From contig CAIIXF020000001.1 in the NCBI GenBank assembly GCA_903813345.2, positions 16,678,001 through 16,742,000 on the forward strand: a stretch of 64,000 bases of DNA, given 5' to 3'. A model generated the notes under the pieces. It ran no database searches. It was not told the DNA's origin and worked only from the letters and a program-made list of their open reading frames with translations. Source of the stretch: Owenia fusiformis (Eukaryota). Shown here in pieces: positions 1 through 64,000 of the stretch. Made by a program: the position numbers and the translations under genes. How positions within the stretch are numbered: position 1 is the first letter of the stretch; the number at the start of each line of letters is the position of its first letter.

Positions 1-60
1 GCCCAGCGAATTAAAGTGCCCAGCGAATTATTTAATATTTCTGTCGTGCTTTATTTACAG

Positions 61-18000: not shown

Positions 18001-18008
18001 GCGATTAA
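61..18008 (+). CDS. BAZ2B: Bromodomain adjacent to zinc finger domain protein 2 (BAZ2A/B, toutatis-like), 5'-truncated by the window edge
   Basis: Phase-consistent GT-AG exons: 61-153, 391-506, 1773-1838, 2670-2714, 4116-4157, 7386-7451, 7887-8027, 8389-8500, 8982-9124, 9348-9640, 9923-10115, 10315-11692, 12011-12169, 12571-12749, 13299-13471, 14235-14499, 14687-14776, 15934-16146, 16403-16557, 16845-16988, 17852-18008. They encode a coiled coil, a DDT domain ([15 protein letters not shown]), WHIM motifs ([20 protein letters not shown]), IAWEKSIM, two PHD fingers (CQIC..CDNC..H..C..WYCFEC; CVVC..CDNC..H..C..WSCATC) and a C-terminal bromodomain ([21 protein letters not shown]). Confidence 0.93.
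2385..2640. repeat. Degenerate tandem repeat (~40-45 bp unit, GTGACACATG..ATATTAAAGTGTAAC..ATATTTACCT)
   Basis: About 6 imperfect copies visible just upstream of the 2670 exon. Confidence 0.7.
2806..2950 (+). mobile_element. Short HINE/DINE-1-like (Helentron-associated) element, family A
   Basis: 5' ATGTCACCACC..GTGGTGACAT hairpin, 3' GGTGGTGACAT subterminal inverted repeat followed by GCATTTTAATGC stem-loop, T-rich flanks. Confidence 0.65.
4764..4840. mobile_element. Possible 77-bp piggyBac-type remnant
   Basis: TTAA|CCCTT ... AAGGG|TTAA; only a 5-bp terminal inverted match. Confidence 0.3.
5207..6495. repeat. 49-bp minisatellite, ~26 near-identical copies, in a BAZ2 intron
   Basis: Unit CTAAGCTTGCTCATCGTTGGACTAAGCTTACTGTTCAACTGGCAGACAA with two AAGCTT per unit and no spacers. 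Confidence 0.97.
6768..6909 (+). mobile_element. HINE-like family A copy
   Basis: Same termini as 2806-2950. Confidence 0.65.
8527..8656 (+). mobile_element. HINE-like family A copy
   Basis: ATGTCACCACC ... GGTGACATTTTGAATGTTAATGCC. Confidence 0.6.
12872..13200 (+). mobile_element. Unclassified interspersed repeat with internal palindrome
   Basis: Inverted homolog at 31930-32290; internal hairpin GGGTAATATTGTCGAATACACCCC ... GGGGTGTATTCGACGATATTACCC. Confidence 0.75.
13590..14250 (+). repeat. 47-bp tandem array (~15 units) overlapping a BAZ2 3' splice site
   Basis: Unit CATCTACATTTTACATTTACCTTGTTTTACAG|TACAACAATTGACCT; the last unit provides the real acceptor at 14234/14235. Confidence 0.95.
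15252..15538. mobile_element. Degenerate MITE-like inverted-repeat element
   Basis: CACACTAC ... GTAGTGTG ends with internal AAGTTGCAAATGGAG / CTCCATTTGCAACTT inverted pair. Confidence 0.5.
17184..17606. mobile_element. ~420-bp MITE (TIR CCCAGATGCGAGTAG)
   Basis: Terminal inverted repeats; inverted homolog of 62848-63277 and of the split copy 51096-57783. Confidence 0.85.
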
Positions 18009-23932: not shown

Positions 23933-25400
23933 CACGCCCGGTGATCGTGAATATGGGACGGAGGGGGGGAGCAGGCAATTTCTGCTAGGAAATTCAACAA
24001 ATCTGGAAGATTTATTTTTTCAAGAAAAAGTTTACTATTGAATTGCTAAATGGATAGGCGCACGGTATGGTAGAATATGTTAGGTTTTCTGGGATTTTTT
24101 CTGAAACGATACGCATCTAAGGTATGAGATCTATTAAAAAAGGCGCAAGGCCATCAACAGGCACAAATCAACGTTTTTGCTATAAATCAAGCAACAATGG
24201 TCTGGACGACCTGTAATAAATACTTGTAAGGCCATAAGAAGTCGATCCTCTGTTTTGCGTCCCCTTGCTTGCACGATTTTGAGTAAATCAGAAAAAACAA
24301 ACACATCCAAATAGCAATCACAAGGGTCTGAAAGTACCATCGCATTTCATTCAATCAGAATCAGATGAAATGGCGGATAAATTGATGTGCGTCAAAATTG
24401 ACAGTGTTATAATTATTTGACATACATTGTGTATTTTCTTATTTTTTACCCTTGAAAAATAGCCATGTTTTTATATATTGTATAAAATGTATAAATATGT
24501 GTTTGTAATCACTGCAAATTGGGATGTCATCCTTTTTTATGCCCCTAAAATGTATATATTCCTCAGCAAACAAGTTTGTGTTTTTTCTTTAGTTTGTGTT
24601 TGTTTTCCTTGTACCCTTACATGATTTGGATTTTGCCAGGACGCAAAACAAAGAATCTACTTCTTATGGCCTAAGTGATGTTATCATAACTAAATTAATG
24701 TCATTGCTGAATTTATAAAATAAGTTTCCATATATGAAATAAAAAATAATCGAAAATAATGAATTTGGGACGGAGGGGGGGAGGGGATGGAGGGGGGGAG
24801 CAATATGTATATAAGACATGATTAGAGATGTTTCGCGACTTTAAGTCCTTTTACTCCAAATGTCCCCATTTTTCAGTCTCCAGGGGTATATCATCCAGTT
24901 TCTTACTAAGTTAATGAGTTCATTTTTCAAATACAAGAATTCGTGTGAAGTTGTTTCACTTTATAGAATTATTACTCCCCCCTCCGTCCCCTCCCCCCCC
25001 CCCCTCCGTCCCATTTTAATTATTTTCGATTATTTTTTATTTTACGTATGGAAACTTATTTTATAAATTCAGCAATGACATTAATTTAGTTATGATAACA
25101 TCACTTACAAGTATTTATTACAGGTCGTGTAGTCCATTGTTGCTTGATTTATAGCAAAAACGTTGATTTGTGCCTGTTGATGGCCTTGCGCCTTTTTTAA
25201 TAGATTTCATACCTTAGATGCGTATCGTTTCAGAAAAAATCCCAGAAAACCTAACATATTCTACCATACCGTGCGCCTATCCATTTAGCAATTCAATAGT
25301 AAACTTTTTCTTGAAAAAATAAATCTTCCAGATTTGTTGAATTTCCTAGCAGAAATTGCCTGCTCCCCCCTCCGTCCCATATTCACGATCACCGGGCGTG
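23933..25400. mobile_element. Foldback-like non-autonomous DNA transposon with ~420-bp TIRs and 4-bp TSD
   Basis: AGAA|CACGCCCGGTGATCGTGAATATGGGACGG ... CCGTCCCATATTCACGATCACCGGGCGTG|AGAA; near-perfect arms, left arm interrupted at 24230-24671. Confidence 0.9.
24230..24671. mobile_element. PIF/Harbinger-type (Tourist-like) MITE nested in the foldback arm
   Basis: TAA|GGCCATAAGAAGT ... ACTTCTTATGGCC|TAA; the opposite arm shows the uninterrupted site. Confidence 0.88.
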
Positions 25401-26499
25401 AGAACCCCTGTACCCCCAATTTGGCTCATTTCACTCGTGCATTCGCTCATACTCTTCACTGACACTATAACTTCACTTGCTCAGATACCACCAAATCCTG
25501 TTGTGAGCCCTGAGAGGTGAAACATATCTTATCATCTTTTTCTTAAAATTCCACTTAGCGGAATCAATTGGTGAATGATCTTGCGTTTTCATACTAAAGT
25601 TTGTTTTTGAGTTTTTTCTTATAGTTTTATATATTTAAAGTTATTTAAGAGACAGGGCCCTTTTTCTAAAGCCCTTTTTAGAAAAATAATTGAGATTACA
25701 GAGGATACCTGTTATTTCTGCTTTTTAACACAATTTTAATAGAAAATTCCAATTCCAAACTCCTTATCTCAATATAATTCACCACTGGGGAATGGGAATT
25801 GAGCAACCAAACTTGGCACAAAGTTAGATCCTAAGATAAACTCTAATCTTAGGGCTTTGATTTTTTGTGACATCTTATATTTGCCTAGCAACCACATAGC
25901 AACTGCCTAAAATAACATATTTTACAATATAAATCCACTTAACATATGCTAGGATGCTATACTACCATTACAAAAAAGTATTCTTATCTTAAAATACAAC
26001 AATTTTACCATATTTACTGAAGTGACATCACCATGTTGCATAGCAACAACATGGCAACAGGTTACAATGCCCATTTTGACATTTGCAGACCATATATCTA
26101 TTATATGTTCACTGCTTTTGGATCTCTTCCACATTATTTCTTAACATATAGCAAATGTATTGATGCAGTTATGTCTGACCATTTTCCCTAACAACGGCTT
26201 GAAATAAAGGTTAAATTTGCCTAGCAACGACCAAGCAACATCATAAAATAGCAATGTTTCTCATAAGAATTTCACTATATATCCACTATATGACTTAAAG
26301 AAAATCAATATATATGTCTTTTGTGATTTATAAAGCTTTATAGTTGCTCACTTAAAAATCTTTAGTCTCTTGTGTAAAGCATGATGGGACATTTCTTGTC
26401 TTACGTGTATCAAATTGCAATTCATGTTTCAGTTCTGATTCATCACATTGATACTTGATACATTTTCAGCATTGATACCCCTAAGATAATACTCTATTT

Positions 26500-27260
26500 T
26501 GGTGAATTGCTTCGATTTCCTTTACAGGTGCATAGTTCGATGCAGTAGAATGCGCCATGGCATTACCAGTTCCCTTTGCAGTCACATTTGGTGCAGTCAC
26601 ATTTAATTATGACTTTACATGCTATGGAAGCTTGGGCAATATTGTCCATCTGGGCACCCACAATCCTGATGGGCTCCTAAACCATCCCCATATGCTTGGT
26701 GAAGGAAAACCTGGATCCACTATATACCACTGCCCCCATGTGCTTCTTGTCAAAAGAACACCTGTAAGATCATTACATAAGTTCCATTGCTTGAAAACTG
26801 TCACCTTGCTCTGATGGTAAAATCCAGACATGGTATCAGTTCCAGTAAGGATGTGGAACATTGGCGGCACACATGATCTTTGTGGTCCTAGTGCTCAAGC
26901 AAATTCATAAATTGGAATGTAGTGTTAGTTTTGAAAATGCTACATATAGATCTCAATCTGTAGCTCAGAGGCACATGCTATTAGGCTATCACAACATTAC
27001 TGTCCACTGATTGTCCACTGATCTTATCATAAATGTCCTGCAACCTTTTCCGACACCATGAGACACATCCAAAAACATATGTGTATCTGCCTCTCCCTGG
27101 GAGCAGGGACTATTATGGCATAATTAGCAGGATTACTGATGCACTCTCCTTCGATGGTTGAGACAAAGACTCTATCGTCTGCCATAATATGTCTTGTAAC
27201 AATTGCTAGTAGTGCAAAGAACTCTATCTTGTTGTCATTGTTTCTGAGAAATCCTATCCT
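26500..27260 (-). pseudogene. Decayed Academ-like transposase 3' fragment (left arm)
   Basis: Frameshifted EADTHMF.., FHILTGTDTMSGF, ..WGW..LWVPRWT motifs; inverted copy of 27575-28350. Confidence 0.7.
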
Positions 27261-27574: not shown

Positions 27575-28350
27575 AGATACATATATGTTTTTGCATGTGT
27601 CTCATGGTGTCGGAAAAGGTTGCAGGACATTTATGATAAGATCAGTGGACAGTAATGTTATTGTGATAGCCTTAGCCTGTGCCTCTGAGCTACAGATTGA
27701 GGTCTATGTAGCATTTTCAAAATGCAAAACGTATCGCTACATTCCAGTTCATGAGATTGCTAGAGCACTAGGACCACAAAGATCATGTGCGTTGCCAATG
27801 TTCCATGCCCATACTGGAACTGATACCATGTGACGTCTGGATTTTACCATCAGAGCAAGGTGACAGTTTTCAAGCAATGGAACTTATGTAATGATCTAGC
27901 AGGTGTCCTTTTGACTCTAGTAGATCGCCCATCAACCGTAACAACAACAGAAGTTATGGGCACAATTGAGAGGTTCATTATCCTGGTTTACCAGCCTGCA
28001 AACAGTGAGACAAATCTCAATACCATGCGCAAGCACATGTTCACTCATGACAGATCGATCCCGATAGATTACCTCCAACAAGCGATGCAGCACTCTATAA
28101 TGTCATGCTCCAAGGAGCACATGTATGGGGGCAATGGCATATAGTGGATCCAGTTCTTCCTTCAACAAACCTATGGGGATGGTTTAGGAGCACATCAGGA
28201 TTGTGTGTACCCAGATGGACAATACTGTCGCCAGCATCCATAATTAAAGGGAACTGCAAATGGAACTGCAAATGCCATGGTGCATTCTACTGCACCAAAA
28301 ACTATGCAATTGCAAAGGAAATTGTAGCAATTAACCCAAATAGAGTATTA
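27575..28350 (+). pseudogene. Decayed Academ-like transposase 3' fragment (right arm)
   Basis: DT.MFLHV..IRSVDSNVIVIA..YIPVHEIA..ALPMFHAHTGTDT..IERFIILVY..WGW..Cys-rich tail, with frameshifts. Confidence 0.75.
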
Positions 28351-28562
28351 TCTTAGGGGTATTAATGCTGAAAATGTAACAAGGATAAATATGATGAATA
28401 TATTGTGTTTACTTTATCTCAGAACTGAAACATGAATTGCAGGACTTTTGCAGTTTGATAAACATAAGACAAGAAATGTCCCATCATGCTTTACACAAGA
28501 GACTACAGGTTTTTGAGTGTGCAGCAACAAAGCTTTATCAATTAAAAGACATACATATTACA

Positions 28563-28768
28563 CAGTGATCTCCCCAGCATTAAAGCAAGTGGACGCAGCA
28601 CCCACCTGAGATTTTGAAAATAGGCTCGCACCCACCTGAAAATCCATTTGCACCCACTTGAAAATGAGAAAAGTCATGAAAAATTGGCATATTTTGACCA
28701 ATTTTTATCTGAATTGTGATAATGAGAATTTTGCACCCACCTGAGAAAAAATCCTGGGGAGATCACTG
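28563..28768. mobile_element. 206-bp MITE with 5-bp TSD (hAT-like CAG ends)
   Basis: TTACA|CAGTGATCTCCCCAG ... CTGGGGAGATCACTG|TTACA; internal GCACCCACCTGA repeats; absent from the opposite Academ arm. Confidence 0.85.
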
Positions 28769-30347
28769 TTACATAATAGTGGATATATACATGTAGTGAG
28801 ATTTTTATGAGAAACATTGCTATTTTAAGCTGTTGCTAGGTCATTGCTAGGCAAATTTAAGCATTGTTTTAAGCCGTTGCTAGGAAGTTGTTAGGGAAAA
28901 TGGTCAGGCATAACTGCATCATTTATGCTTAAATACAATTTCTGTATGTTAAGAAATAATGTGGAAGGGATCCAAAAGCATACAAGTGAGCATATAATAG
29001 GAACATGGTGTGCAAATGTCAAAATGGGCATTGTAACCTGTTGCCATGTTGTTGCTATGCAACATGGTGATGTCACTTCTGTAAATATGTTTGAATTATT
29101 GTATTTTAGGATAAGAAGACTTTTTGTAACGGTCTTATAGCATCCTAGCATATATTAAGTGGATTTATATTGTAAAATGTGCTATTTTAGATGGTTGCTA
29201 TGTGGTTGCTAGGCAAATGTATGATTTCACAAAAGATCAAACCCCTCAGATTAGAGCTTATCTTAGGCTCCAACTTTGTGCCAAGTTTGGTTGCTCAACT
29301 TCCATTCTCCATTGGTGAATTAAAGTGAGATAAAGAGTTTGAAATTTGAATTTTCTGTTCACATTGTGTTAAAAAGCAGTAATAATGGGTATCCTCTGTA
29401 ATCTCAAATATTTTTCTAAAAAGGGCTTTAGAAAAAGGGCCCTGTCTCTAAAATGTCTTGAAATACATGGAACAATAAGAAAAAATTCCAAAACGAACTT
29501 TAGTATGAAAACGCAAGGTCCCTATGGGGGCCTTGCACCAATTGATTCCACTAACTCAAAACAATATGGTCATAAACCAATTTAAATAGAAATTATGAAT
29601 TCAAAAAATGGTACAATGCACACCTCCCTCCTCACGCAATTCTGGCTACGGGAAGCGAACTTCAACCCCATCTACGATTTCCAAGGTGGTTCTAACATTA
29701 AACTGAAACCTTTGAATCAAGATGCTCCACCCCTGCAGAAGGGTATCAAAACGATGACTCTGTCATATCTTGGAATAGAATAAAGATTTAGTGTTCCCAG
29801 GTCATAATAAGCATTTAAGGCTAGTGAGCAGTGGATCCATGGTTTTCAAGCAGCAACTTAATGGCTGAATGGTGCTGATTGAAGTTTGTGAAGTATATTT
29901 GGTTGTTATGTGTATATAATCAATAACGAAAGTGAAACTAAATTGGAAATCACATGGTGTAATTTAAGCCATGTGCTTTTGTTTACTAACATAAATCCGA
30001 CATGTTGATTGGTTCACCGTTTAAAGGATGCCGGAAGTAAGCGAAAAGCGCCATCTGTAAGGCGCGAAAGTGTTTGATAACCACAAGTGTGCTTGTGCAT
30101 GTGCTTTAATAATTTCAAGTTATTAGAGAATAATTTCACACAATCGTGCATCATATTTGGATTATTCTGGTACCGACTGTGCTCTACAAGCGTCAGGCGA
30201 ACGGATTTCAATGCACGTTCGTGAGTAGTTGAGAGGAATTCACACTTTGCGGTTGCAACTTCATCTCAACTTCGAACATTTCAATTTCATGTCAGAATCG
30301 TCTGTAGGCTTTAGAAGCAGTGCAGAAATCAATCTCAGATCTGGATG

Positions 30348-31745: not shown

Positions 31746-48345
<16,600 letters not shown>

Positions 48346-49875
48346 AGCATGACCTTGTTTATTGTAGCTGGAGTCTACAATCCTATGTTATGAACAACAG
48401 ATTCGGTGTTTTTAAATTGCATTCAAATAAATAGATAATTGGGGACTAAATGTTTGATGCAGAACTAATTAGAAGTGTTTAATGAACATTTTCATCACTA
48501 TAATACTACATTTGTATAGTTTAATGAGCAGTAGTATAGCCATGACAACTACAGCCAATAGAGACCTTTTAACAAAAATATTGTATTTCACAAATCTTGA
48601 AATGGAAATGTCTTTCTTATTGCATAATGAATAGGACAATTTACAATATATTTGGGAAATGGTCCCTGACCTGTTCAACTTTTCCCATCAAGGCCAAAGA
48701 AATAGAAGTCAAATAAGACCTTTGATGATTGTTTGATTTAAAATTAGATCTAGTGATAGGGCATCTTTCATAACTTAATAAAGAAATCCTAAGACATAAT
48801 AATCCAATAAAAGTAAATTTGAAAATATTATATATAATATGCTTATAAGCCTACTTAATTTTACTTTAAATCTCAGGAATATAATTTGCAGATCACTAAG
48901 ACAGTCCAGACATTGATTGAGCCAAAAGTGTATTATTATATATTTTTTTATATACAGTAGTCAGTAGTTACTTTATTTTTATATTTCTATAGCCTATAGA
49001 CATGATAGATAGAACTGTATGTATTTGCTTATTTTAAAACAAAATACATTTTTTGGTGAAGAGAAGACCATTTGTACTTGCGTCTCATGGATCTTACTAA
49101 AATATTGCAGAATTTTTGTTATTTTGTGACAAAAAGTTCATGATTCATATTTGTTTTAAATTTCAAGATATGAGCACCAAAGATCAAAAGAAATTGAAGA
49201 TGTTATAATATTGTTGCATTCTGTCAGAGTTTAAAAGTTGTAGCCATACTGAATGTGATATACTGTATCAATTCAAATATAAGACACCTTAGTTGTACCA
49301 TATTTGTAATCTGTAAGGTTATATATGTTGAACTGATATTCAAAACAGTAGTTTATGAATAAAAAAAATAGTTTGTCATTTTATTATTTTATTTACAGAG
49401 AATTAAAGTGGAAAATATAGTGTATCAAAACTCTATCTGTACTTAGAGCTACTCTTGAGTCTTGAAATATGAGGGAGGGGCAATCCTGAACATTTGAACA
49501 TGTGTCAAGGGTAGAAGGGGGAGGGTTGAAAAATAGTGAAGGTGTAAGAGCGAAAGAAGGGGAGTAGAAAAGGAGTCAAGTATTCGGTATCATAGTAACA
49601 GTTTAGCATTCACATCACCATGTTTCGCTTTCATTTCCAAAATTCATCCCAATAGGACAAAAACTTCCCAAAAACAAACGGGGAATCTCTAACCTTTCAT
49701 ATGAGCCTATAAATGAAATTTGCCAAGTTAATGACTTGAGATTGGCATCTAAACCTGTGATCTCTTGAAATATTTAGTCCTAATTGTTGCTGTAATGACC
49801 CGAAGGTATTTCTGAGGAAACACAGAGTGCAGTGTGGTAAGCCACATTCAAGGGGTGAAAGAATGCTAAATGCAA

Positions 49876-49948
49876 TGCCCCGTGTGGAAATCAAACCTAG
49901 AACTCTTCAATCCAAAGCCTGATCGTCTACCAACTGAGCTATCAAAGC
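49876..49948 (-). pseudogene. tRNA-derived pseudogene or SINE head
   Basis: 73 nt with A-box TAGCTCAGTTGG and degenerate B-box GGTTTGATTTCC; acceptor and anticodon stems are poorly paired. Confidence 0.65.
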
Positions 49949-50800
49949 TTTGGCGAAGAAGCTGTGCTGTAGTACCATATCTAGTATCAACTTTCTATCC
50001 ATGGCATTTACAAGAATAGTTCAGATGTGATGACCAATTAACGTTTTGATTAATCTTGCGAATTGTCAAAACCTTTGCCAGAGCAATCAATAAGATATTT
50101 TAAGTTATACATATATGCAAAATACATCCAAATACATGTAGTTCTCAGGGTTTCCCAATAGGCATAACTTCATGTAATTCAGCTATAAACACATGTTGGA
50201 AGCTGAAACTTAAGATGTGACCACTGCAGTGATATATTGAAGGCCTACACCAAAATTGGAGTTTGACCTTGGAATGACATACAATTATTCCAGAATTGAC
50301 CTTCACACACATTGATAATATCTGAGACCATCATAAAATATGAACACCATAATTGTATATTTTACAGGAAGCCATATACATGTTTCTAAGTATTTGTGTT
50401 TAAAAGAAAACTGATTGGAATAACTATTTTCCTTTACCTAAACAAATAGTGACCGAAATTACCCGAGTCTCTAGCTTGCATAGAGATAGCTTTGGATCCA
50501 AGTCAACCTAAACAGTACGACTTAAACGATTCAACACCCGTGTATTACTACACAAAACGAAATCAATAATAAAGTTTCCCGGGAGTAAGATTTTCTACCT
50601 GGAAAAAACATTTTGGTACTATTTCTTTTTGCAATCTAGCAAGTTATACACATTGAATATTAAGAAAAAACAGTATTGAATGAAAAATTTGTACATTTAA
50701 AGAATTTTGTTTAGTTTATTGATAATCAAAACCTTCAAATCATGTAAATATTAGGATTCGAAAATGTGGTTCTCGCTGAATTGAAGGTCGACAATCGTAA

Positions 50801-50929
<129 letters not shown>

Positions 50930-51717
50930 TGAGCTGTTTTCGTAAAATGACCGGTTAAAACGTTAAATCACTTACATTAGGACTTTGAAATGATGCCAAG
51001 ATTTCAAGATGTTGATGATTTTCACGTTTCTTTACAATCAACATAGAAAATGGGTCAGTTGAGGTCAGTCAAAATGTCGATATCTGTATCAATAACCCAG
51101 ATGCGAGTAGAAATAATCTTGATTTACGTCATTAAAAATTCAAAATTCAGTCAAACTAATATCATATTTGAAATCTTCATGTAAAATTACATCTAGAAAT
51201 GTGGTTTTAAAAAGTGTTTATCAACTTTGAAAAATTAATTTTCTTTGAAAATGTGACTTCTAGCTCGGGGAGATTCCCCATAGACCCCATGCTATAAAAT
51301 CACAAAAAATGAAATATCTTTTATTTTAGTGGACAGATAATATTTTGCTTTACTGGACATATCTTCATTAGTATAAGTATCAGACGCATAAGGGTTATAT
51401 GAAAATTGAGCCACTTAAATTGATAACATTCAAGTTTAACCCTCTCTTTACGGGACCCCCTATTTTCGTTAAATATTTTACGATGGAAAGACCTCATTTC
51501 ATGATATTGATTGTCGGGCACAAAAGGGTTAACATCCGTCAACTATTTACAAAACTGAACAAAATATTCAGTTTTTCTTACCTGGACTAAGTTTTCAAGT
51601 GTTAATGCATTGGTATCGTGTAAATTTATGTTTTTGTTGGAGAACATTTTCAAACCGTTGAATTTTAAAAATGGCAGTTCTCGCGCGAAATCGCGCGTGA
51701 TCTCCATACAAGCAGAA

Positions 51718-54700
51718 ATGGCGTCTCAACGACCAGTGAGAGGCTCTGCAATACGGGCTCGTGAGCTCTTCCAGAGAGGGTTTGGGGAAGATGGGGACGA
51801 TGATGTTATGTCCGAAAATGAGGAGGATGGTATGGATGAAGATATGTTGGAAGATGATGAGTAAGTTGGGTAAAATTCGTGACTGAATAGAGATCGTAAT
51901 TTTTTTTAGTTTTTGAAAAATTAATTCTACGAATGATTATTTAATTATCGCCACTAAAATTGTTTCTTTTCATTTGAATGAACACCCCAGTAAATCTATG
52001 TGGTGTTTTAAATATAAAACATGCATCATGTCTTTCTATAAAGGCGCTTAGACACTAAAACCCATTGTAGTAACATACTTCCGTATTTGCCGAGTGGGCG
52101 ATAATAGAGTAGTCTAATTCGTAATATTTTCAATCATCATCTTTTTCCAGAAATACGCTGAATAATTGTGATTATTGCATTCTGTTATCGTTTCATATAG
52201 CTGGGGAATGAAGTTTCATGTAATGTTAAGTCTAGAATACACCTTCATGTTAATGATAACAGTCAAGAAATAGCTCAGTTTTCACTTTGATTTTCAACAG
52301 TGTATGAATACATGTAAGTCATGACCATGCTTATTTAGATCAATTTATTTTTCAATCATGAGATAGAAACAGAATGATAGTGCTCCCTATTAATTTTCAA
52401 CTCTTTTAGGTCAGATGATGGTGTAGATATTGGAGATCAGCAGCCCCAGCAACGGAGACATCGTGGAAGGAATCCCAATATACAAGTGCCTGTAGAAGTC
52501 GGTGCAGGAGATGCTCCAGCCCAGAATGGCCAGGTAATATATGGATATGATAACAATGATATTGAGCCTTTCAGGGTTCGATTCGCTCCAAGAAGACCAC
52601 CTGGTGTGCAGCTTGGAAGGCTGACAAGAAATGGAATATTACAATATGTTACCCCCCTTGCAATTTTCTCCCTCTTTTTCAACCAGGACATCCTCCAGAC
52701 CATTGTGGATAATACGAATACCTATGCTAGGCTTAATATTGCTAACCTTCCAACTTATGGCGACCAACAAGGAGAGTGGTTACCTACAACGGTTGATGAA
52801 ATAAGACAGTTTCTGGCCTGCCTCATATATATGGGCTTTGTAGACGTTGCCACAATTTCACGTTATTGGTCAACCCAAGCCCTGTACAATGGGCTTTGGG
52901 CAAGACGCTTCCTCAGTAGAGACAGATTTACATCTATTCTTGCCATGCTGCATATTTCTGATCCATTAAATGAGCCAGCATTAGCTGAGGATAAGCTCAG
53001 AAAAGTTCGAAACCTCATATCCCATGTACAGAATGTCTGCGTAGAGCTCTACCAGCCAGGAGAGAACATTTCCATCGACGAACGCATGGTAAAGTCAAAG
53101 CACAAGAGTGGGATAAGGCAATTTAACAAGGACAAGCCTTGTCGCTTTGGGTTTAAAGTCTTTGTTCTGGCAGAAAGTGACACAGGATTTACCTGTAGGT
53201 TTAAGGTTTATACTGGGAAAGCAAACACACCTATAGGGGACAATGGACTTGCCTATGATGCTGTAGTTAGTCTTATGGATGGACTCCTGAACCAAGGGTA
53301 TCGAGTGTTTTATGACAACTGGTATTCTAGTATCCCCTTGGCGGATTACCTTGCAGACAATGACACTGTGTGTTGTGGGACCATCCGTGACAATCGCCGT
53401 GGTATCCCGGAGGGGCTGAAACAGCAATGGCGAGGTGTCCAGAGAGGTAGCAATGTTGCTGTTCCCCATTCCACTGGTTATTTGTTGACTTTTTGTTTCC
53501 AAATTCATATTTTCTGTGTATTTGATGATTGCAATAATTCCTGTCTTCCTAATTTCTGTTACAATTTTTCTTAGCTTTTATTTAAATATAAAAGCAATTG
53601 TTCCACTTTGCCTTGAAATGCTGAACAATACAGGGACTTTTTTACATATCATCTTAAAATAGATGCCAGGAATTACAGTAATCATCTGATCATATGTTGT
53701 TTCAAATTAATTAATTCATATTTCTATTTAGTTTTCAGATACAACTATGAGACCCTACGACTGACACTAGGTTTCAGATTCATGTTAGCTAATTTTATTA
53801 AAATTAAACTAAGTTGTTATCTTATTTACTAAAAAAAATTCTAATTTTATTTATTCTTTTGTAGAAGCTGTTGACACAATTCTCCCTACTACTTAGATCA
53901 TTAAACATGTTAAATGTAAAAAATACATCACGCATTTCAGTGTGGATCATAAAAATCAATATATTTAATAAAACAGTATAAATAAAATTTATCAAATCAA
54001 TCAATAATTCATCAATATAATAACATACATGAAGTTCATAGAGTATTTGTAGTCAAAGGCCCTTTAACAATATACTGATAAAGCTGAATACTTTCTGATA
54101 TAAACTGAGATCTTCATATTTTTCAGGCAACATGAGGTATGTCAGGGAGGACAAAAAGCTTTTTGTTCAGTGGCGTGACAATAAGACAGTGACAGTACTT
54201 TCAACACTAGGGAATGCCTCTACTTCTGACCATGTGAAGTAAGTCTTGCCATTATATCCACCATGCAATATCACAAACTATATGTTGTATACAAGCTCTG
54301 AAAAAAGAATTTTGCATTTATCCTTTTAAGTATAGATGGCATCTATGCTATCCATGCTTGACTCACTTTGAAATGTGAAAGACACTGACAGTGACCATTG
54401 ACAATGTAAATTAATGTATTCGGTGAATTGAATAGTTTCCCATAAACTAACACCAGCTGTTGGTGGTGTATTTTGATTGAAATGATAAAAATCATGAGCA
54501 GGCAACATTTAGGAAACAAAAAGGAAAGCAACAAACAATAAAACAAACCATAGAATAGAAATCTATTAAAACTAAACTTGTAAACTAATTATTCTGATGT
54601 ATTATTTTTGCTTATAGTCGTACAGTGAAAGTCAATGGAGAGTGGCGCAGGCACATTGTCCGTCGGCCTAGTGTTGTCCGCATGTACAATGAAGGAATGG

Positions 54701-56008
54701 GTGGGGTCGACAAATCTGATCAGCTGATAGGATTGTAAGTACTATTTTCTCATGTTTTATTCTTTAAAGGCAGAATCTGATCTAAAGGGGTGACAAAATT
54801 ACAAGCAACATGTATAATTGACCTACCAATCTATTCCCTACAATATCAAATACAATATCTCCCAAAACATTCACAATATGTTATAAATTGGTGAAGTTAT
54901 TAATGATTCAAAGTGCAAAAATGAGTGAAAAATGTTTAAAATTCTCCCAAATAATAAGAATGGTGACCATTCTTATAGAAAAATAATACATTATGTAAAA
55001 ATCTTTAGTTTTCCTGGAATAAAGTATGCACTTTTGTGATTTTTAGAAAATAGATATGACAAGGAATGACATGAGCCAAAAATATTCTAAAATTGAAACA
55101 ATATTTTGTTTAGCCTGCTCGCTATATCTGATTCTCTCTTTAAGGTAACATGTTTAACATGTTTTACCCCTCAGAATTAAAGCTCCTGTTTTGTTCATGT
55201 GCTACTTATATATATCATCTTTAACATTTGGTTTTAGAAATCGGTGTAGTATCGATGGAGTATAAACTTAGGTTCAATTTGGTTTGCATATTTTCAGGTA
55301 CAACATCATAAGGAGAAGTCTGAAGTGGTGGAAAGTGTTTTTCTTCCATATGGTAGATACATCAGTGGTTAACTCATTCATTATATTCCAAGAGCTGCAG
55401 CATAAATTCCCAGATGTCCCTGAGCTTCAACGACCATCTTGTAAGTTTTCTCCATGTTAAATACATGTATTGATAAAACCTCTAAGCCTTTTAACAGTAT
55501 GATAGAAAATTTCTTTTATTAGATTTTGGGTCATTTGATTTAGTTTCATCTTACTATGAAGTGCGAAGGAAAGTCCATTTATAGTGTGTTTGGGTATCAG
55601 GTGTTTCTTCCCAGGTGGTTAGGCACACCAAAGTTGGTATTTTGATAGGTGTCTAGTAGGAAACTTAAATTTTTATTGCAGCAAACACCAATTATTTTTG
55701 TAATTGAAAGAAAATTTTATAACATTCCAGGCTACGGTCAGCTTGAGTTTAGAGAGGAGTTGGTGAGACAATTTGCCCATATAGAGCTGAATGAGGAGGT
55801 ACCAAGACCCCGTTGTCTAGCTCCTAGAGTTGACCCAAGTCCCCATTTGCCAGTCCACAGTGGCATGTCACGAAACTGTCGCCTGTGCTACGCAAATAAC
55901 AAAGTTGAAAGAAAATCCCAGTGGACGTGTAGCAATAGAAACTGTAGAGGCAACTTGTGCCTGAATTCAACTAGAAACTGTTTTTATAACTACCATATTA
56001 ATCATTAA
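51718..56008 (+). CDS. piggyBac DDD transposase (PGBD4-like), 6 exons, 609 aa, uninterrupted
   Basis: Exons 51718-51860, 52410-53446, 54127-54238, 54618-54734, 55298-55440, 55731-56008 (1830 nt, all GT-AG, phases match). Acidic N-terminus, SIDE, YDNWYSS, W.DNK.V, YN..MGGVDKSDQ, KWWK.FF, C-terminal Cys-rich domain. Confidence 0.93.
54768..55139. mobile_element. Kolobok-like MITE remnant inside transposase intron 4
   Basis: TTAA|AGGCAGAATCTGATCTA ... TATATCTGATTCTCTCT|TTAA (imperfect TIR). Confidence 0.55.
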
Positions 56009-56599
56009 TATAATATGTAAACATATGTTATCAGAAAGCCATGTTACCAGAGAACCTTTAGCTATTATTGTATGCATGATAAGGCAAACAAAATGTTCAT
56101 TTATTCATTCAATGTCTCTGTAAAACAATGTATGCACACTATATAGCGTATAGTGCATTCATGTATCTTATTGTTTCTCGTATCGTGACAATGTATCATG
56201 ATACACATCATATTGTGGCATACTGTATCATACTGTATCATGATAACACTAACTGACACTTACATAAAGCAACATACCCATAGAAACAGTTTTCTGTGAT
56301 CTTCTTGTTATGGCGTGAACACTGTTGATTACAATTTACATATTGTGGAGGTTATCAGTTATGTTGTTATCTATAGATTACAAACGGGAAAATATGTGAG
56401 ATTTTTTATCGATTTTTTAAGCTTTACCCCTAAATAGGCTTAAACAATCAGGACATTAACATTTACTTAAATTGCTAACAATTTTATATAAATGAGATAC
56501 ATATGTACATGTATTGTAGTTCATGTTCTAAAGTTTGATATGGTACCAATAAGACAACTGTCGATAAGAAATTGAGTAAATAACATTGTTATTTGTGAT

Positions 56600-57640
56600 G
56601 TAAAGATTTGGTAATTTTATCGATTTTTGAAGCTTCACCTGTAAATGACTGGTGATGACATCACCTAATTAGCATAATTTATGTATAGTCTATGTAAATA
56701 AGATGTTCTCATGTTCTTAGCTTTCATATGGTACCAAGACGGTTTATTAAATAATGAGGAAGTCAAGCCACACATTTATTTGTAACAAGTGATTACCTTT
56801 CATGGTCATTTTTGCTCCGAAATGCACAATCATCAGCTTTTGCGATATTTTGCATAAATTCAGTAATTTTCAAAAAGCTCCTTTATCATTGCTTTTTGGA
56901 GTTGTAATTCAGGAAATATATCATTGGAAAGCTTGGAACTCATAGAAAATAGATTAAAAGTATTGTAGATATTGAAGTAAGGTATTAGTCCAAGAAAAAT
57001 TTCATAGCACCATTGATCATGAGATTTTTGAGATTTTTTTGAGATTCTTACGAGATTTTCCTTTTTTCGTTGAATTGTGACATCATGATGACGTCATCTC
57101 ATTTACATAATTTATTCAATTATATGTAAATAGGATAGTGTATGCTTTTGGGTTTAATTTGATACCCCAATTGTAATGATTGCTTGGATAATATGGAAAT
57201 AACAGTATTTTATTTGTGATATTAGTTCTTATCTCTTATGGTCATTTTTGCTCCAGAATGCACATTATCAGATTTCGCGATAGATTACAATATTTCGTGT
57301 AAAACCAGAAATTTTCGAAAAGATCTCAATTCGTCATTTTTTGGAGTTGTAATTCAGGAAATATATCATCTGAAAGCTTGGAACCCCTAGAAAACAGATT
57401 TAAATTATTTTTGTGCTATTGTTGTAAGGTATTTTCAAGATAAATCTCATAGCACAATTGATCATGATATTTTGAAGATTTTTGTTTTTTTTGATGACCT
57501 ATGACGTCATGATGACGTCATCTAATTTGCATAATTGATTAAATTATATGTAAATTGGATAGTATATGCTCCAAGGTTTAATTTGATACCCCAATTGTAA
57601 TGATTGGATGGATACTTTGGAAATTACAGTATATTTCGTA
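56600..57640. repeat. piggyBac right-end subterminal direct repeats (~430-bp period)
   Basis: GATGAC(G/A)TCA motif followed by A(C/T)TT.CATAATT-like sequence at 56654, 57087 and 57511; 56800-57190 is similar to 57235-57610. Confidence 0.85.
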
Positions 57641-57861
57641 ATTTTGTGCACAATTATTGATAAAATGCCCAAAAACCCTCAGTAATGAAGGAGTTAAGGG
57701 AACTTTCTCATATACCTGCCATGTTAATTGACCCGAATCAGCCACCTGGTGGTGAAACTGGTAACTACCTACTCGCATTTGGGTAATTACAATAGTGAGA
57801 TTGTCTTAAAGTAGCATATTTGTATCTTTAGAATAACAACAACAGCCTTGATATCTAACGT

Positions 57862-58065
57862 TTAGCATAAACCAGGCTTCCTTAGTTCAACGTCGTTAAA
57901 CTCAATAACGGCGTTCTTTACTATTAGGAATTTTTTCTTGGGGCCATTATTGAGTTTAACCTCCATGCTATTCTTTTCTTTGATGCAAGTTGTGGATCTA
58001 TCGAAACCACTTTTTCTCGCTAATATGACACTGATACTTAACAATAATATAAAACCACATTTCAT
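57862..58065 (-). pseudogene. Truncated homolog of the 30348-30686 ORF
   Basis: Shared peptide and upstream DNA; similarity ends abruptly after EFNDVEL. Confidence 0.45.
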
Positions 58066-59945
58066 CAGGCGATTTCACATAATATTATTGTGTTAAATGT
58101 TCATTTTTAATCGTAAAATGAGTCTTATTCTTACCAATTTATGAGACGAATATTTCAACCGGCAATGTCTGTCTGTGCGTCGCCAAAGTAAACTTGGTCA
58201 GCGAAACGAAATTGTTCTTCAATATTGATATTTATTATAACCATCCAGTATGACCAAGGGCGTTACAATACCCGGGAATTTATCGGTTCGTGCAGTACTT
58301 GTTTGTGATAGCGCCATCTGCAGGTCACTGTGGTTATAGCCTAAAGTAATACGGGGTAGGATATCGGGAATTCGGTGCAGTTTCTATCCGTCGATTACGC
58401 TATGAATTGAAGCAAGTGTGACCACTTTATCCACTTAAACAATTTGATAATTGATCAAATCTTTAAACAAAAACGATAAACACGTCATACACTTCCTATC
58501 TCCTTAGAAATTAGCATGTATTTATCGGATTGTGTTTTCGGACGATGCTCGACCCAGACCACTAGGGAAATCCTTATGCTAATTAGTATGACGTCATATT
58601 TTCCTGGGGAATCCTAGATTTCAAAGCCTCGGTCTTTTATTCAATTGTGTCAAATGTAAACGTTCTTTTGCAGGCAGAAAATTGACAGATTAGCTTTTAA
58701 CTTTCAGCTTTGATGTTTAAATATTCTATATTTCTACCAGACTTCTTCCTGAATATCATATAATGTTATAACTTGATTTTGGACGATTGCCTGATTGATC
58801 CTTTCTGAAATTTTGATTGTGATCAGGCATGATTGATTGGCAAGAAAAATAATTCCTATTGTTTTCCAGCGAAGTATAAATGTTACAGCATAAATTATAA
58901 TAAGTGGGAAGTAGAATAAAGGATGGACGGGGCTGGTGGCCCTACCAGCCCCCCCCCCCGGGCCAGCCCCACCAATTCACAAGCATACACATACTAGACA
59001 AACACACCCAGGCTCCAGGCCGTGATGGAAATATAAAACTATTTAGGGCACAAAATGGTATTTAATAGACCGATATGTAGTGAATCCGCCATGTATTGAA
59101 GGTAAAACAATCTGCATTAATGTTACTTCTATCAATACATGGATTGTGCCATGGAAAACTTTGGGGAGTAGTCGGCCATTTTGAAAAATGGCCACCATTT
59201 CTATGTGTGTTATTTTACATTTTTATTATAACTCATAAAGTAATAGAGCGATTTTGTTCATATTTGATATGCGAATACTCGTAAGGATTGCATACTGTCT
59301 CATGACATTTTGAGTAGTAAGCGGCCATTTTAAAAAATGGCCACCATTGGCAATCTTTTAAGAATTTTATATGTGGCTACTTAAAAGCATATTACTTCTG
59401 ATGACAACTTGGCTTGGTGATCAACCATTTTGAAAATGGTGGCCTTTCTTATGGGTGTTATTTTATGATATTTGCTATATATTTTGTATGTAAAAATGCC
59501 AGCCATTTCTGTTCGATGGGATTCGCTACGCTTTGGCGTTGCCGTTGTTCTGGTTAAAATGAGTGTTGTATCTTTTATTAAGTGATCTAATCATTTTAGA
59601 GGTATCTCATTATTCATTCATAAATATATTTATGATTGTTTACATCTCATGCCATGGAAGATTTAAATATTAACAGCACTCCCTATATACTGATTACTGA
59701 CCCCCATAGAATATAGAAATTAAGCAGGGAGTAGTACAGAATCACAAGTTACTTGTGCTTATACACTTATTATGCCACTATGTACCCTCCTAAAAGGTTG
59801 TGTGAAAATATTTGGTTATGGTCCTGAGAAAGTATCTCTTTATAGTCAAATAATTTTCAGTGTCCCAAACAAAAATTCAAAAGAAAATATGATTCTTTCT
59901 TCTATTAATTATGTATTTTAATTTTCCATTTCCACTTTATTTCAG

Positions 59946-60097
59946 GTGAAAAAACAAAACTGCAGACGAAGCCAAAATCTCGGAGAAGCAAATCCAAGCA
60001 CCAAGATGTGGAGGGTGTATTCAAAACTATAGACACAGATATGGGCCAGTGGTCAGAGACATCTATTATCAAAAGCTCTGATGAAGGCAGTAGCTAG
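59946..60097 (+). other. HELLS: Duplicate of the HELLS terminal coding exon
   Basis: Same sequence as 48194-48345, including the acceptor and 3' UTR. Confidence 0.9.
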
Positions 60098-61627
60098 AGC
60101 ATGACCTTGTTTATTGTAGCTGGAGTCTACAATCCTATGTTATGAACAACAGATTCGGTGTTTTTAAATTGCATTCAAATAAATAGATAATTGGGGACTA
60201 AATGTTTGATGCAGAACTAATTAGAAGTGTTTAATGAACATTTTCATCACTATAATACTACATTTGTATAGTTTAATGAGCAGTAGTATAGCCATGACAA
60301 CTACAGCCAATAGAGACCTTTTAACAAAAATATTGTATTTCACAAATCTTGAAATGGAAATGTCTTTCTTATTGCATAATGAATAGGACAATTTACAATA
60401 TATTTGGGAAATGGTCCCTGACCTGTTCAACTTTTCCCATCAAGGCCAAAGAAATAGAAGTCAAATAAGACCTTTGATGATTGTTTGATTTAAAATTAGA
60501 TCTAGTGATAGGGCATCTTTCATAACTTAATAAAGAAATCCTAAGACATAATAATCCAATAAAAGTAAATTTGAAAATATTATATATAATATGCTTATAA
60601 GCCTACTTAATTTTACTTTAAATCTCAGGAATATAATTTGCAGATCACTAAGACAGTCCAGACATTGATTGAGCCAAAAGTGTATTATTATATATTTTTT
60701 TATATACAGTAGTCAGTAGTTACTTTATTTTTATATTTCTATAGCCTATAGACATGATAGATAGAACTGTATGTATTTGCTTATTTTAAAACAAAATACA
60801 TTTTTTGGTGAAGAGAAGACCATTTGTACTTGCGTCTCATGGATCTTACTAAAATATTGCAGAATTTTTGTTATTTTGTGACAAAAAGTTCATGATTCAT
60901 ATTTGTTTTAAATTTCAAGATATGAGCACCAAAGATCAAAAGAAATTGAAGATGTTATAATATTGTTGCATTCTGTCAGAGTTTAAAAGTTGTAGCCATA
61001 CTGAATGTGATATACTGTATCAATTCAAATATAAGACACCTTAGTTGTACCATATTTGTAATCTGTAAGGTTATATATGTTGAACTGATATTCAAAACAG
61101 TAGTTTATGAATAAAAAAAATAGTTTGTCATTTTATTATTTTATTTACAGAGAATTAAAGTGGAAAATATAGTGTATCAAAACTCTATCTGTACTTAGAG
61201 CTACTCTTGAGTCTTGAAATATGAGGGAGGGGCAATCCTGAACATTTGAACATGTGTCAAGGGTAGAAGGGGGAGGGTTGAAAAATAGTGAAGGTGTAAG
61301 AGCGAAAGAAGGGGAGTAGAAAAGGAGTCAAGTATTCGGTATCATAGTAACAGTTTAGCATTCACATCACCATGTTTCGCTTTCATTTCCAAAATTCATC
61401 CCAATAGGACAAAAACTTCCCAAAAACAAACGGGGAATCTCTAACCTTTCATATGAGCCTATAAATGAAATTTGCCAAGTTAATGACTTGAGATTGGCAT
61501 CTAAACCTGTGATCTCTTGAAATATTTAGTCCTAATTGTTGCTGTAATGACCCGAAGGTATTTCTGAGGAAACACAGAGTGCAGTGTGGTAAGCCACATT
61601 CAAGGGGTGAAAGAATGCTAAATGCAA

Positions 61628-61700
61628 TGCCCCGTGTGGAAATCAAACCTAGAACTCTTCAATCCAAAGCCTGATCGTCTACCAACTGAGCTATCAAAGC
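61628..61700 (-). pseudogene. tRNA-derived pseudogene or SINE head (duplicate)
   Basis: Copy of 49876-49948. Confidence 0.65.
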
Positions 61701-62552
61701 TTTGGCGAAGAAGCTGTGCTGTAGTACCATATCTAGTATCAACTTTCTATCCATGGCATTTACAAGAATAGTTCAGATGTGATGACCAATTAACGTTTTG
61801 ATTAATCTTGCGAATTGTCAAAACCTTTGCCAGAGCAATCAATAAGATATTTTAAGTTATACATATATGCAAAATACATCCAAATACATGTAGTTCTCAG
61901 GGTTTCCCAATAGGCATAACTTCATGTAATTCAGCTATAAACACATGTTGGAAGCTGAAACTTAAGATGTGACCACTGCAGTGATATATTGAAGGCCTAC
62001 ACCAAAATTGGAGTTTGACCTTGGAATGACATACAATTATTCCAGAATTGACCTTCACACACATTGATAATATCTGAGACCATCATAAAATATGAACACC
62101 ATAATTGTATATTTTACAGGAAGCCATATACATGTTTCTAAGTATTTGTGTTTAAAAGAAAACTGATTGGAATAACTATTTTCCTTTACCTAAACAAATA
62201 GTGACCGAAATTACCCGAGTCTCTAGCTTGCATAGAGATAGCTTTGGATCCAAGTCAACCTAAACAGTACGACTTAAACGATTCAACACCCGTGTATTAC
62301 TACACAAAACGAAATCAATAATAAAGTTTCCCGGGAGTAAGATTTTCTACCTGGAAAAAACATTTTGGTACTATTTCTTTTTGCAATCTAGCAAGTTATA
62401 CACATTGAATATTAAGAAAAAACAGTATTGAATGAAAAATTTGTACATTTAAAGAATTTTGTTTAGTTTATTGATAATCAAAACCTTCAAATCATGTAAA
62501 TATTAGGATTCGAAAATGTGGTTCTCGCTGAATTGAAGGTCGACAATCGTAA

Positions 62553-62681
<129 letters not shown>

Positions 62682-62847
62682 TGAGCTGTTTTCGTAAAAT
62701 GACCGGTTAAAACGTTAAATCACTTACATTAGGACTTTGAAATGATGCCAAGATTTCAAGATGTTGATGATTTTCACGTTTCTTTACAATCAACATAGAA
62801 AATGGGTCAGTTGAGGTCAGTCAAAATGTCGATATCTGTATCAATAA

Positions 62848-63277
62848 CCCAGATGCGAGTAGAAATAATCTTGATTTACGTCATTAAAAATTCAAAATTC
62901 AGTCAAACTAATATCATATTTGAAATCTTCATGTAAAATTACATCTAGAAATGTGGTTTTAAAAAGTGTTTATCAACTTTGAAAAATTAATTTTCTTTGA
63001 AAATGTGACTTCTAGCTCGGGGAGATTCCCCATAGACCCCATGCTATAAAATCACAAAAAATGAAATATCTTTTATTTTAGTGGACAGATAATATTTTGC
63101 TTTACTGGACATATCTTCATTAGTATAAGTATCAGACGCATAAGGGTTATATGAAAATTGAGCCACTTAAATTGATAACATTCAAGTTTAAGGGAACTTT
63201 CTCATATACCTGCCATGTTAATTGACCCGAATCAGCCACCTGGTGGTGAAACTGGTAACTACCTACTCGCATTTGGG
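62848..63277. mobile_element. Intact 430-bp MITE containing the empty piggyBac site
   Basis: TAA|CCCAGATGCGAGTAG ... CTACTCGCATTTGGG|TAA. Confidence 0.88.
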
Positions 63278-63355
63278 TAATTACAATAGTGAGATTGTCT
63301 TAAAGTAGCATATTTGTATCTTTAGAATAACAACAACAGCCTTGATATCTAACGT

Positions 63356-63559
63356 TTAGCATAAACCAGGCTTCCTTAGTTCAACGTCGTTAAACTCAAT
63401 AACGGCGTTCTTTACTATTAGGAATTTTTTCTTGGGGCCATTATTGAGTTTAACCTCCATGCTATTCTTTTCTTTGATGCAAGTTGTGGATCTATCGAAA
63501 CCACTTTTTCTCGCTAATATGACACTGATACTTAACAATAATATAAAACCACATTTCAT
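63356..63559 (-). pseudogene. Duplicate of the 57862-58065 fragment
   Basis: Identical translation. Confidence 0.45.
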
Positions 63560-64000
63560 CAGGCGATTTCACATAATATTATTGTGTTAAATGTTCATTT
63601 TTAATCGTAAAATGAGTCTTATTCTTACCAATTTATGAGACGAATATTTCAACCGGCAATGTCTGTCTGTGCGTCGCCAAAGTAAACTTGGTCAGCGAAA
63701 CGAAATTGTTCTTCAATATTGATATTTATTATAACCATCCAGTATGACCAAGGGCGTTACAATACCCGGGAATTTATCGGTTCGTGCAGTACTTGTTTGT
63801 GATAGCGCCATCTGCAGGTCACTGTGGTTATAGCCTAAAGTAATACGGGGTAGGATATCGGGAATTCGGTGCAGTTTCTATCCGTCGATTACGCTATGAA
63901 TTGAAGCAAGTGTGACCACTTTATCCACTTAAACAATTTGATAATTGATCAAATCTTTAAACAAAAACGATAAACACGTCATACACTTCCTATCTCCTTA

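Follow-up and report, generated by a model that had tools for sequence, protein, structure and literature searches.

The 64,000-nt stretch of Owenia fusiformis DNA analysed here (contig CAIIXF020000001.1; hereafter the window, whose coordinates are used throughout) contains, at 51440-57693, what is probably a cut-and-paste DNA transposon of the piggyBac superfamily, inserted in a TTAA of a miniature inverted-repeat transposable element (MITE) and carrying five spliceosomal introns gained in its own lineage. The sequence evidence for the five introns is strong, and we infer from it that they are removed in vivo at the predicted junctions.

The transposase gene was modelled by enumerating every GT and AG near five breaks in the coding sequence (CDS), which gave 24 donor/acceptor combinations. 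Only one of these produces an open frame of more than 560 amino acids (aa), joining six exons into a 609-aa protein, as an earlier sequence-only reading of the window had proposed, and the 1,827 coding nt of the joined exons contain neither a stop nor a frameshift. An alternative in-frame ATG at 51628 would add 30 residues, giving 639 aa. All five introns are GT-AG and four have a GTAAGT donor; their G+C content is 27-31% compared with 45% for the CDS. Reading through introns 1 to 5 leads to a stop after 1, 42, 1, 1 and 6 codons, respectively. The parts of the gene are as follows:

51718-51860, + strand: exon 1, acidic N-terminus, not conserved, the least certain exon (ATG, donor, frame)
51861-52409, + strand: intron 1, 549 nt, phase 2, GTAAGT...AG
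52410-53446, + strand: exon 2, most of the transposase domain, with D271 and D350 (PF13843; 9c0f, 6x67)
53447-54126, + strand: intron 2, 680 nt, phase 1, GTAGCA...AG
54127-54238, + strand: exon 3 (splice model, homologue alignment)
54239-54617, + strand: intron 3, 379 nt, phase 2, GTAAGT...AG
54618-54734, + strand: exon 4, third catalytic Asp D462, motif GVDKSDQ (PF13843 positions 286-319)
54735-55297, + strand: intron 4, 563 nt, phase 2, GTAAGT...AG
55298-55440, + strand: exon 5 (splice model, homologue alignment)
55441-55730, + strand: intron 5, 290 nt, phase 1, GTAAGT...AG
55731-56008, + strand: exon 6, Cys-rich C-terminus, coding to 56005, stop 56006-56008

The joined protein aligns with full-length homologues encoded by a single open reading frame (ORF) in one BLASTP high-scoring segment pair (HSP), which runs from residues ~84-106 to 606-608; in the example of P0048, residues 93-607 match 13-525 of 525 at 45% identity with 10 gaps. 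At the junction residues 394, 431, 470 and 518 there is no indel in the 26-row alignment, and conserved motifs are rebuilt across the junctions. The first junction falls in the unconserved acidic N-terminus and is therefore less certain than the other four. With GT-AG borders at five of five introns and no indel at these four junctions, the gene is intron-rich, as first read. Words of DNA run X1 cover exons and introns equally deeply (~185-235), and a single contig of 1,904 nt includes exon 1, intron 1 and exon 2, with part of the 5′ non-coding region before them and the beginning of intron 2 after them; an intron-less version of the element is accordingly not evident.

The element is a genuine member of the piggyBac superfamily. 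The profile PF13843 (DDE_Tnp_1_7) matches exon 2 with an E-value of 1.2e-62 (212.7 bits against a cut-off of 22.4; profile positions 1-249 of 349) and exon 4 at positions 286-319 (E 8e-4), the latter match alone being below the cut-off. Exon 2 also matches the solved transposases piggyBat (9c0f, E 5e-28) and Trichoplusia ni piggyBac (6x67, E 7.5e-23), while searches of the PDB gave no match to the 38-aa exon 4 and no relevant match to the C-terminal exon, and no solved Cys-rich domain. D271 and D462 are each conserved in 25 and D350 in all 26 aligned rows, D465 likewise lies in a column conserved in 25-26 of 26, and in the alignment with piggyBat 9c0f D271 and D350 fall on its SxDE and DNxY motifs. 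We take D271/D350/D462 to be equivalent to D268/D346/D447 of T. ni piggyBac. The intact-looking transposase with all three catalytic Asp residues (DDD) that had been read from the sequence is thus borne out. The C-terminal Cys-rich domain claimed with it is upheld as a Cys/His pattern, which aligns with 24 homologues, but not as a profile match, since PF13842 finds nothing even at E 10.

The insertion is bounded by TTAA on both sides, and the window also holds a single TTAA with the same flanks. The 32 nt to the left of the element are matched exactly at 63160-63191 and the 32 nt to the right at 63188-63219; two such matches occurred in 0 of 100 shuffles. The next bases outward of the TTAA differ between the two sides of the element, so the target-site duplication (TSD) is no longer than TTAA. 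Such a filled/empty pair is what a piggyBac-type insertion or a precise excision leaves behind. The features of the element and its flanks are:

51440-57693, + strand: piggyBac-type element, 6,254 bp between TTAA copies
51436-51439, unstranded: left TTAA target-site duplication (sequence; empty-site comparison)
57694-57697, unstranded: right TTAA target-site duplication (sequence; empty-site comparison)
63188-63191, unstranded: single TTAA, the empty site, where the left- and right-flank matches overlap
47404-51439, unstranded: left flank, 100% identical to 59156-63191 over 4,036 bp
57694-58506, unstranded: right flank, 100% identical to 63188-64000 over 813 bp, limited by the window end
51440-51453, + strand: left terminal inverted repeat (TIR), begins CCCTCTC, imperfect, 9/14 match to the reverse complement of 57680-57693
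57680-57693, - strand: right TIR, ends ...GGAG, 9/14 match with the left end
51440-51717, + strand: 5′ non-coding region, 278 nt, with the in-frame alternative ATG
56009-57693, + strand: 3′ non-coding region, 1,685 nt, with ~2.5 diverged ~430-nt tandem units carrying a TGACGTCA-type palindrome

The length is made up of 278 nt of 5′ non-coding sequence, 1,830 nt of CDS including the stop, 2,461 nt of introns and 1,685 nt of 3′ non-coding sequence. Between the filled and empty sites the flanks show no difference in 4,849 bp, which indicates that the insertion or excision is young or polymorphic. The claim of recent mobility therefore holds, on a filled/empty TTAA pair with flanks identical over 4,036 + 813 bp.

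The flank copies lie in tandem with a period of 11,752, or 5,494 without the element and one TTAA, and this arrangement can be read in two ways. The first, to which we give about even chances, is a very young 5.5-kb duplication of which one copy gained or lost the element. The second, which has very nearly an even chance, is that the filled and empty sites are two alleles of one heterozygous locus laid in tandem by the assembler. The exact identity of the directly adjacent copies over 4,036 + 813 bp would fit misplaced alleles, as would the left boundary at 47404/59156, which lies in a ~150-bp tandem array and beyond which the similarity stops abruptly (149 mismatches in the 200 positions to the left). 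Against this, the window has no N gap, and false duplications usually adjoin gaps or contig ends; a genuine very recent 5.5-kb tandem duplication would also give the same picture. Misplaced alleles would be compatible with a mobile piggyBac element, as the empty site would then represent an insertion polymorphism, with the flank identity weaker for dating, and both readings imply a young or polymorphic insertion. The precise empty site reported earlier is accordingly present as a single TTAA, but within a 100%-identical tandem copy of the flanks that may be the other allele. The read joints that skip 6258 are not specific to this locus, most of them stemming from other copies of the high-copy MITE. 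The array itself occupies 46877-47596 and contains the left boundary of the duplication. The stretch is present in 20 sequencing runs from 6 studies, 18 of which contain half or more of its words, and X1 contigs covering 5,288 nt have 9 differences from the window.

None of these 20 listed runs is on record as RNA. Transcription was therefore assessed in three raw-read RNA runs with the same species label, each contributing ~1.7-1.9 billion letters. They cover the element to a depth of 0-11. In the orientation with the first mate on the minus strand, bins with exons 3, 5 and 6 have a depth of 1-11 in all three runs, and bins fully within introns 2 and 3 have a depth of 0-0.6, a difference that leans towards splicing. 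As a check of the junctions, the RNA reads give a mixed picture: the bins of exons 3, 5 and 6 stand above introns 2 and 3, but none of the 15 joints listed is a predicted junction. At 51645 the window base differs from 25/25 covering RNA reads and from the X1 contig, and at 55310 (exon 5, synonymous) it differs from the X1 contigs and from 12/13 covering RNA reads; X1 contigs and window also disagree at about 10 further positions of the element. These differences would mean that other copies or alleles prevail in the samples or that the assembly consensus contains errors.

Several observations weigh against a mobile element with a spliced transposase gene. The TIRs are weak (9/14) and the right end is GGAG instead of the usual GGG, which could mean impaired mobility. 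No exon-exon joint is found among the 15 joints listed, a further 198 lying outside the listing, RNA coverage of intron 1 is about equal to that of exon 1, and most of exon 2 has no RNA reads in the orientation of the reads over exons 3, 5 and 6. Exon 1 is placed only by its ATG, GTAAGT donor and frame, and the N-terminus is not conserved; at the other end of the protein, the PF13842 profile search of the C-terminus gave no match. A single copy of the element is visible, and the stretch provides no single-copy depth baseline. Finally, if the tandem duplicate were an assembly artefact, polishing could have produced the 100% identity of the flanks.

With regard to the ends, the match of 9/14 was scored in a fixed register and has a binomial p of 0.004; 0.6% of random TTAA pairs in the window equal it. 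When the 200-nt ends are aligned locally without a fixed register, the best result does not exceed that of shuffles. Imperfect TIRs do not exclude mobility, as the inverted terminal repeats (ITRs) of the Daphnia element Pokey are imperfect too (PMC3849761).

A real piggyBac of which this copy is dead or silenced, its ORF not expressed in spliced form and its movement supplied in trans by another copy, is an unlikely but not negligible explanation. The RNA depth of 0-11 without clear exon enrichment, the presence of reads in both orientations and the weak TIRs are consistent with it, as is the difference of all 25 RNA reads and the X1 contig at 51645, by which another copy or allele may be the one transcribed. 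On the other hand, the 1,827 coding nt are free of stops and frameshifts with all checked catalytic and Cys residues kept, and the RNA is limited to three runs of unstated tissue. Transposases are often germline-restricted.

It is very improbable that insertions into a dead ORF, or its decay, are mistaken here for introns, with the 609-aa protein an artefact of how the GT and AG dinucleotides were chosen. This explanation can call on the lack of a junction read among the joints listed, the repeat nested in intron 4 and the limited reliability of exon 1. However, all four junctions that lie in conserved sequence show no indel relative to 25 homologues and have their motifs rebuilt, a single HSP runs across all four, 1/24 combinations is open, donors are GTAAGT in 4/5 and the G+C difference between exons and introns is sharp; the nested repeat accounts for just 380 of the 563 nt of intron 4. 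Least probable of all is a domesticated, immobile host gene resembling PGBD5. It would account for the several introns and fit the low apparent copy number, but not the TTAA duplication with its precise empty site, the element's own non-coding ends (278 nt and 1,685 nt) inside the TTAA borders or the intact DDD, where PGBD5 lacks 3/4 conserved Asp residues (PMC3902484).

For a mobile, intron-bearing piggyBac we propose the following course. The transposase gene would have gained five GT-AG introns that are not in the sampled relatives; the spliced mRNA would encode the 609-aa (or 639-aa) DDD transposase with a C-terminal Cys-rich domain; and the transposase would attach to the two ends, cut the element out precisely and insert it again at TTAA. 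Going by its sequence the protein of this copy is presumably active, and it is presumably this copy, rather than another, that drove the move.

The origin of the introns was addressed with 80 related loci, chosen by a peptide pattern within one exon so that the sampling was blind to introns. The four junctions are contiguous in 68/68, 66/67, 66/66 and 60/60 informative loci, the single split being a 20-nt gap and not an intron, and in 58 of the 80 loci one segment extends across all four junction positions. Because the related loci are contiguous at the four testable positions, the five introns are regarded as gains in this lineage. Short database homologues were considered as exon-2 equivalents of intron-bearing relatives and rejected, as their sequence continues across the intron positions.

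The nearest relatives are single-ORF piggyBac elements on metagenome contigs and 'PGBD4-like' proteins of cnidarian, sponge, tick and fish origin, with 41-53% identity over the transposase. They are flanked by TTAA, their TIRs begin CTCTT..., which resembles CTCTTTAC inside the left end of this element, and unlike this element they have no intron at any of the four positions that could be compared. Among 5.8 billion clusters the highest identity to exon 2 is 53%; among 1.84 billion representatives it is 49% over the whole exon, with one 186-aa fragment at 52%. On these identities the transposase lineage is isolated. The protein collections contain no match above 53% identity to the spliced product, a result that is uninformative on splicing because the plain exon-2 ORF of this species is absent too. 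Both ends were recognised in 8 of 44 full-length related loci, of which 6 are units of 3.05-4.06 kb and the other 2, with end pairings of ~7 kb, are doubtful. The description of the element as oversized stands, since its 6,254 bp are about twice the length of the nearest complete relatives.

T. ni piggyBac (IFP2) and Myotis piggyBat share with this element the transposase fold family, the TTAA target and the DDD triad, and its C-terminal Cys/His pattern probably corresponds to their Cys-rich C-terminus. Both have a single uninterrupted ORF, a length of ~2.5 kb and good CCC...GGG TIRs, whereas this element has six exons, 6.25 kb, TIRs matching at 9/14 and a right end of GGAG. Outside the superfamily, intron-bearing transposase genes are found in the P element, Tol2 and Ac. 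These, like the TLEWI elements of bivalves, are similar to what is proposed here in having a transposase mRNA dependent on host splicing, but belong to other superfamilies. Splicing restricts P element activity to the germline (Laski et al. 1986, as reported in citing work). The TLEWI elements are Tc1-like, intron-bearing and without TIRs and are argued to be domesticated (bioRxiv 10.1101/656579); this element, by comparison, has kept its TSD and ends.

The closest parallel is Pokey, compared here by its published description. Pokey is a mobile piggyBac with a canonical length of ~4.5 kb and copies of up to 9.8 kb, and has one GT-AG intron of 68-84 bp confirmed by reverse-transcription PCR (PMC3849761, PMC3575242). 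Like this element, it inserts at TTAA, has imperfect ITRs (of 12 or 16 bp in Pokey) and repeated internal non-coding sequence, and encodes a DDD transposase, Pokey's carrying a zinc-finger-like motif. The differences are that Pokey has one short intron and this element five of 290-680 nt, that the repeats are 5′ in Pokey and 3′ here, and that Pokey occupies a specific site in 28S ribosomal DNA (rDNA) whereas this element lies in a MITE and not in rDNA. Since Pokey has both, neither large size nor an intron is unprecedented in a mobile piggyBac.

PGBD5 resembles this element in having several introns within the transposase domain. Its domain is split by several long canonical introns, and this domesticated gene of chordates is present as one syntenic copy, lacks both TIR and TSD and no longer has 3/4 conserved Asp (PMC3902484). 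In this element, by contrast, TSD and empty site are present and the DDD is intact. Another study discusses introns for the domesticated genes PGBD5, PGM and TPB2 (PMC5381638). The background given in the sequence-only reading, that piggyBacs are single-exon elements of ~2.5 kb and that introns mainly mark domesticated copies, was overstated in view of Pokey; five introns inside the transposase domain of a mobile piggyBac nevertheless appear to be new. Full-text searches of the literature turned up no mobile piggyBac with several introns and no work on piggyBac in Owenia; Repbase, Dfam and paper supplements (e.g. the lists of PMC5381638) may hold such families.

The insertion target is an internal TTAA of a copy of an abundant ~440-bp MITE, and a second repeat is nested within intron 4:

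51091-51439 and 57694-57788, unstranded: ~440-bp MITE with TIR CCCAGATGCGAGTAG and a TAA-like 3-bp duplication, interrupted by piggyBac
62843-63282 and 17179-17611 (- strand): other copies of the ~440-bp MITE
54764-55143, unstranded: nested high-copy repeat in intron 4, TTAA at both ends, termini AG...CT

The uninterrupted MITE copy at 17179-17611 is ~86% identical to the piggyBac-bearing one. With this TIR and 3-bp duplication the MITE would be Harbinger/Tourist-like. Its word depth in X1 is ~1e6 compared with ~200 for piggyBac, and it is abundant in the RNA reads in both orientations. The repeat in intron 4 has a depth of 1e5-8e5 against ~200 elsewhere in the element, with loose ends at 54764 and 55143; it measures 372 bp between its TTAA copies and has an imperfect TIR of ~14 bp. 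A TTAA TSD together with 5′-RR...YY-3′ ends is the rule for Kolobok elements (PMC9587614), and from its sequence the repeat looks like a non-autonomous element of the Kolobok type. RNA reads show a joint that goes back 62 in other copies of this repeat.

Within the non-coding parts of the element, 56640-57636 consists of ~2.5 tandem units of ~430 nt, 77-88% alike, each with a TGATGACGTCAT-type palindrome. The TGACGTCA core of these palindromes is presumably a CRE/ATF-like site. The units were detected by a repeat search and BLAST, as Tandem Repeats Finder (TRF) misses units so diverged, and belong to the element because their depth equals that of its remainder. No ORF of at least 110 aa was found in the 1,685 nt of 3′ non-coding sequence, and an Rfam search of 50500-58500 gave 0 matches. 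Shortly upstream of the transposase ATG, CTCGCGCGAAATCGCGCG is found at 51678-51700; its opposite strand contains TTTCGCGC, which in our view resembles an E2F site. This region is a possible promoter element of the transposase gene.

At the other end of the window, more than 33 kb upstream of the element, 60-18005 (+ strand) holds a BAZ2B-like chromatin gene from residue 819 to residue 2189, its 3′ two-thirds, with WHIM1, WSD and then PHD/bromodomain according to the precomputed Pfam annotation of the matched protein. This match, an NCBI protein of Owenia fusiformis, is 99% identical to the largest exon and 95-100% identical to most exons; matches of 76-88% are confined to 12501-12758, 16400-16621 and 16816-16989. 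Its introns contain tandem arrays at 5205-6493 and 13600-14251 with periods of ~49 nt and ~47 nt, the ~49-nt array having ~26 units that are 93-95% alike. Between this gene and the element are an inverted repeat at 25580-27088 / 27575-29517 (arms of ~1.5 kb, 77-86% identity, ~490 nt apart) and a pair at 23933-24230 / 25104-25400 (298 nt, 98%), which may be foldback-type or nested transposon structures.

That an actively transposing piggyBac lineage gained five introns in its transposase domain while still mobile is a tentative interpretation, and we lean a little against it. If true, an intron-rich structure can precede domestication, which would answer the question of whether the introns of PGBD5 arose before or after its immobilisation (PMC3902484) and would undercut introns as a criterion of domestication (PMC5381638). 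A five-intron, TTAA-bounded, presence/absence-polymorphic element with an intact DDD and a Cys-rich C-terminal pattern would be the counter-example, the short intron of Pokey being the one verified exception found. By analogy with the P element, splicing by the host might in that case decide in which tissues the element can transpose. If intron 2 were retained, translation would end 42 codons into it, and the shortened protein, without D462 and the Cys-rich domain, is a possible repressor. The introns might also help the element to escape surveillance systems, such as HUSH, that are directed at invaders without introns. Control by splicing and an application as a tool enzyme are both speculation, the latter because the ends are imperfect and the activity is only predicted. 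As none of 60-68 relatives shares the introns, the gains are lineage-specific and could be dated with more oweniid genomes. The element would thus offer a system for studying how cut-and-paste transposons acquire introns and whether splicing controls their activity.

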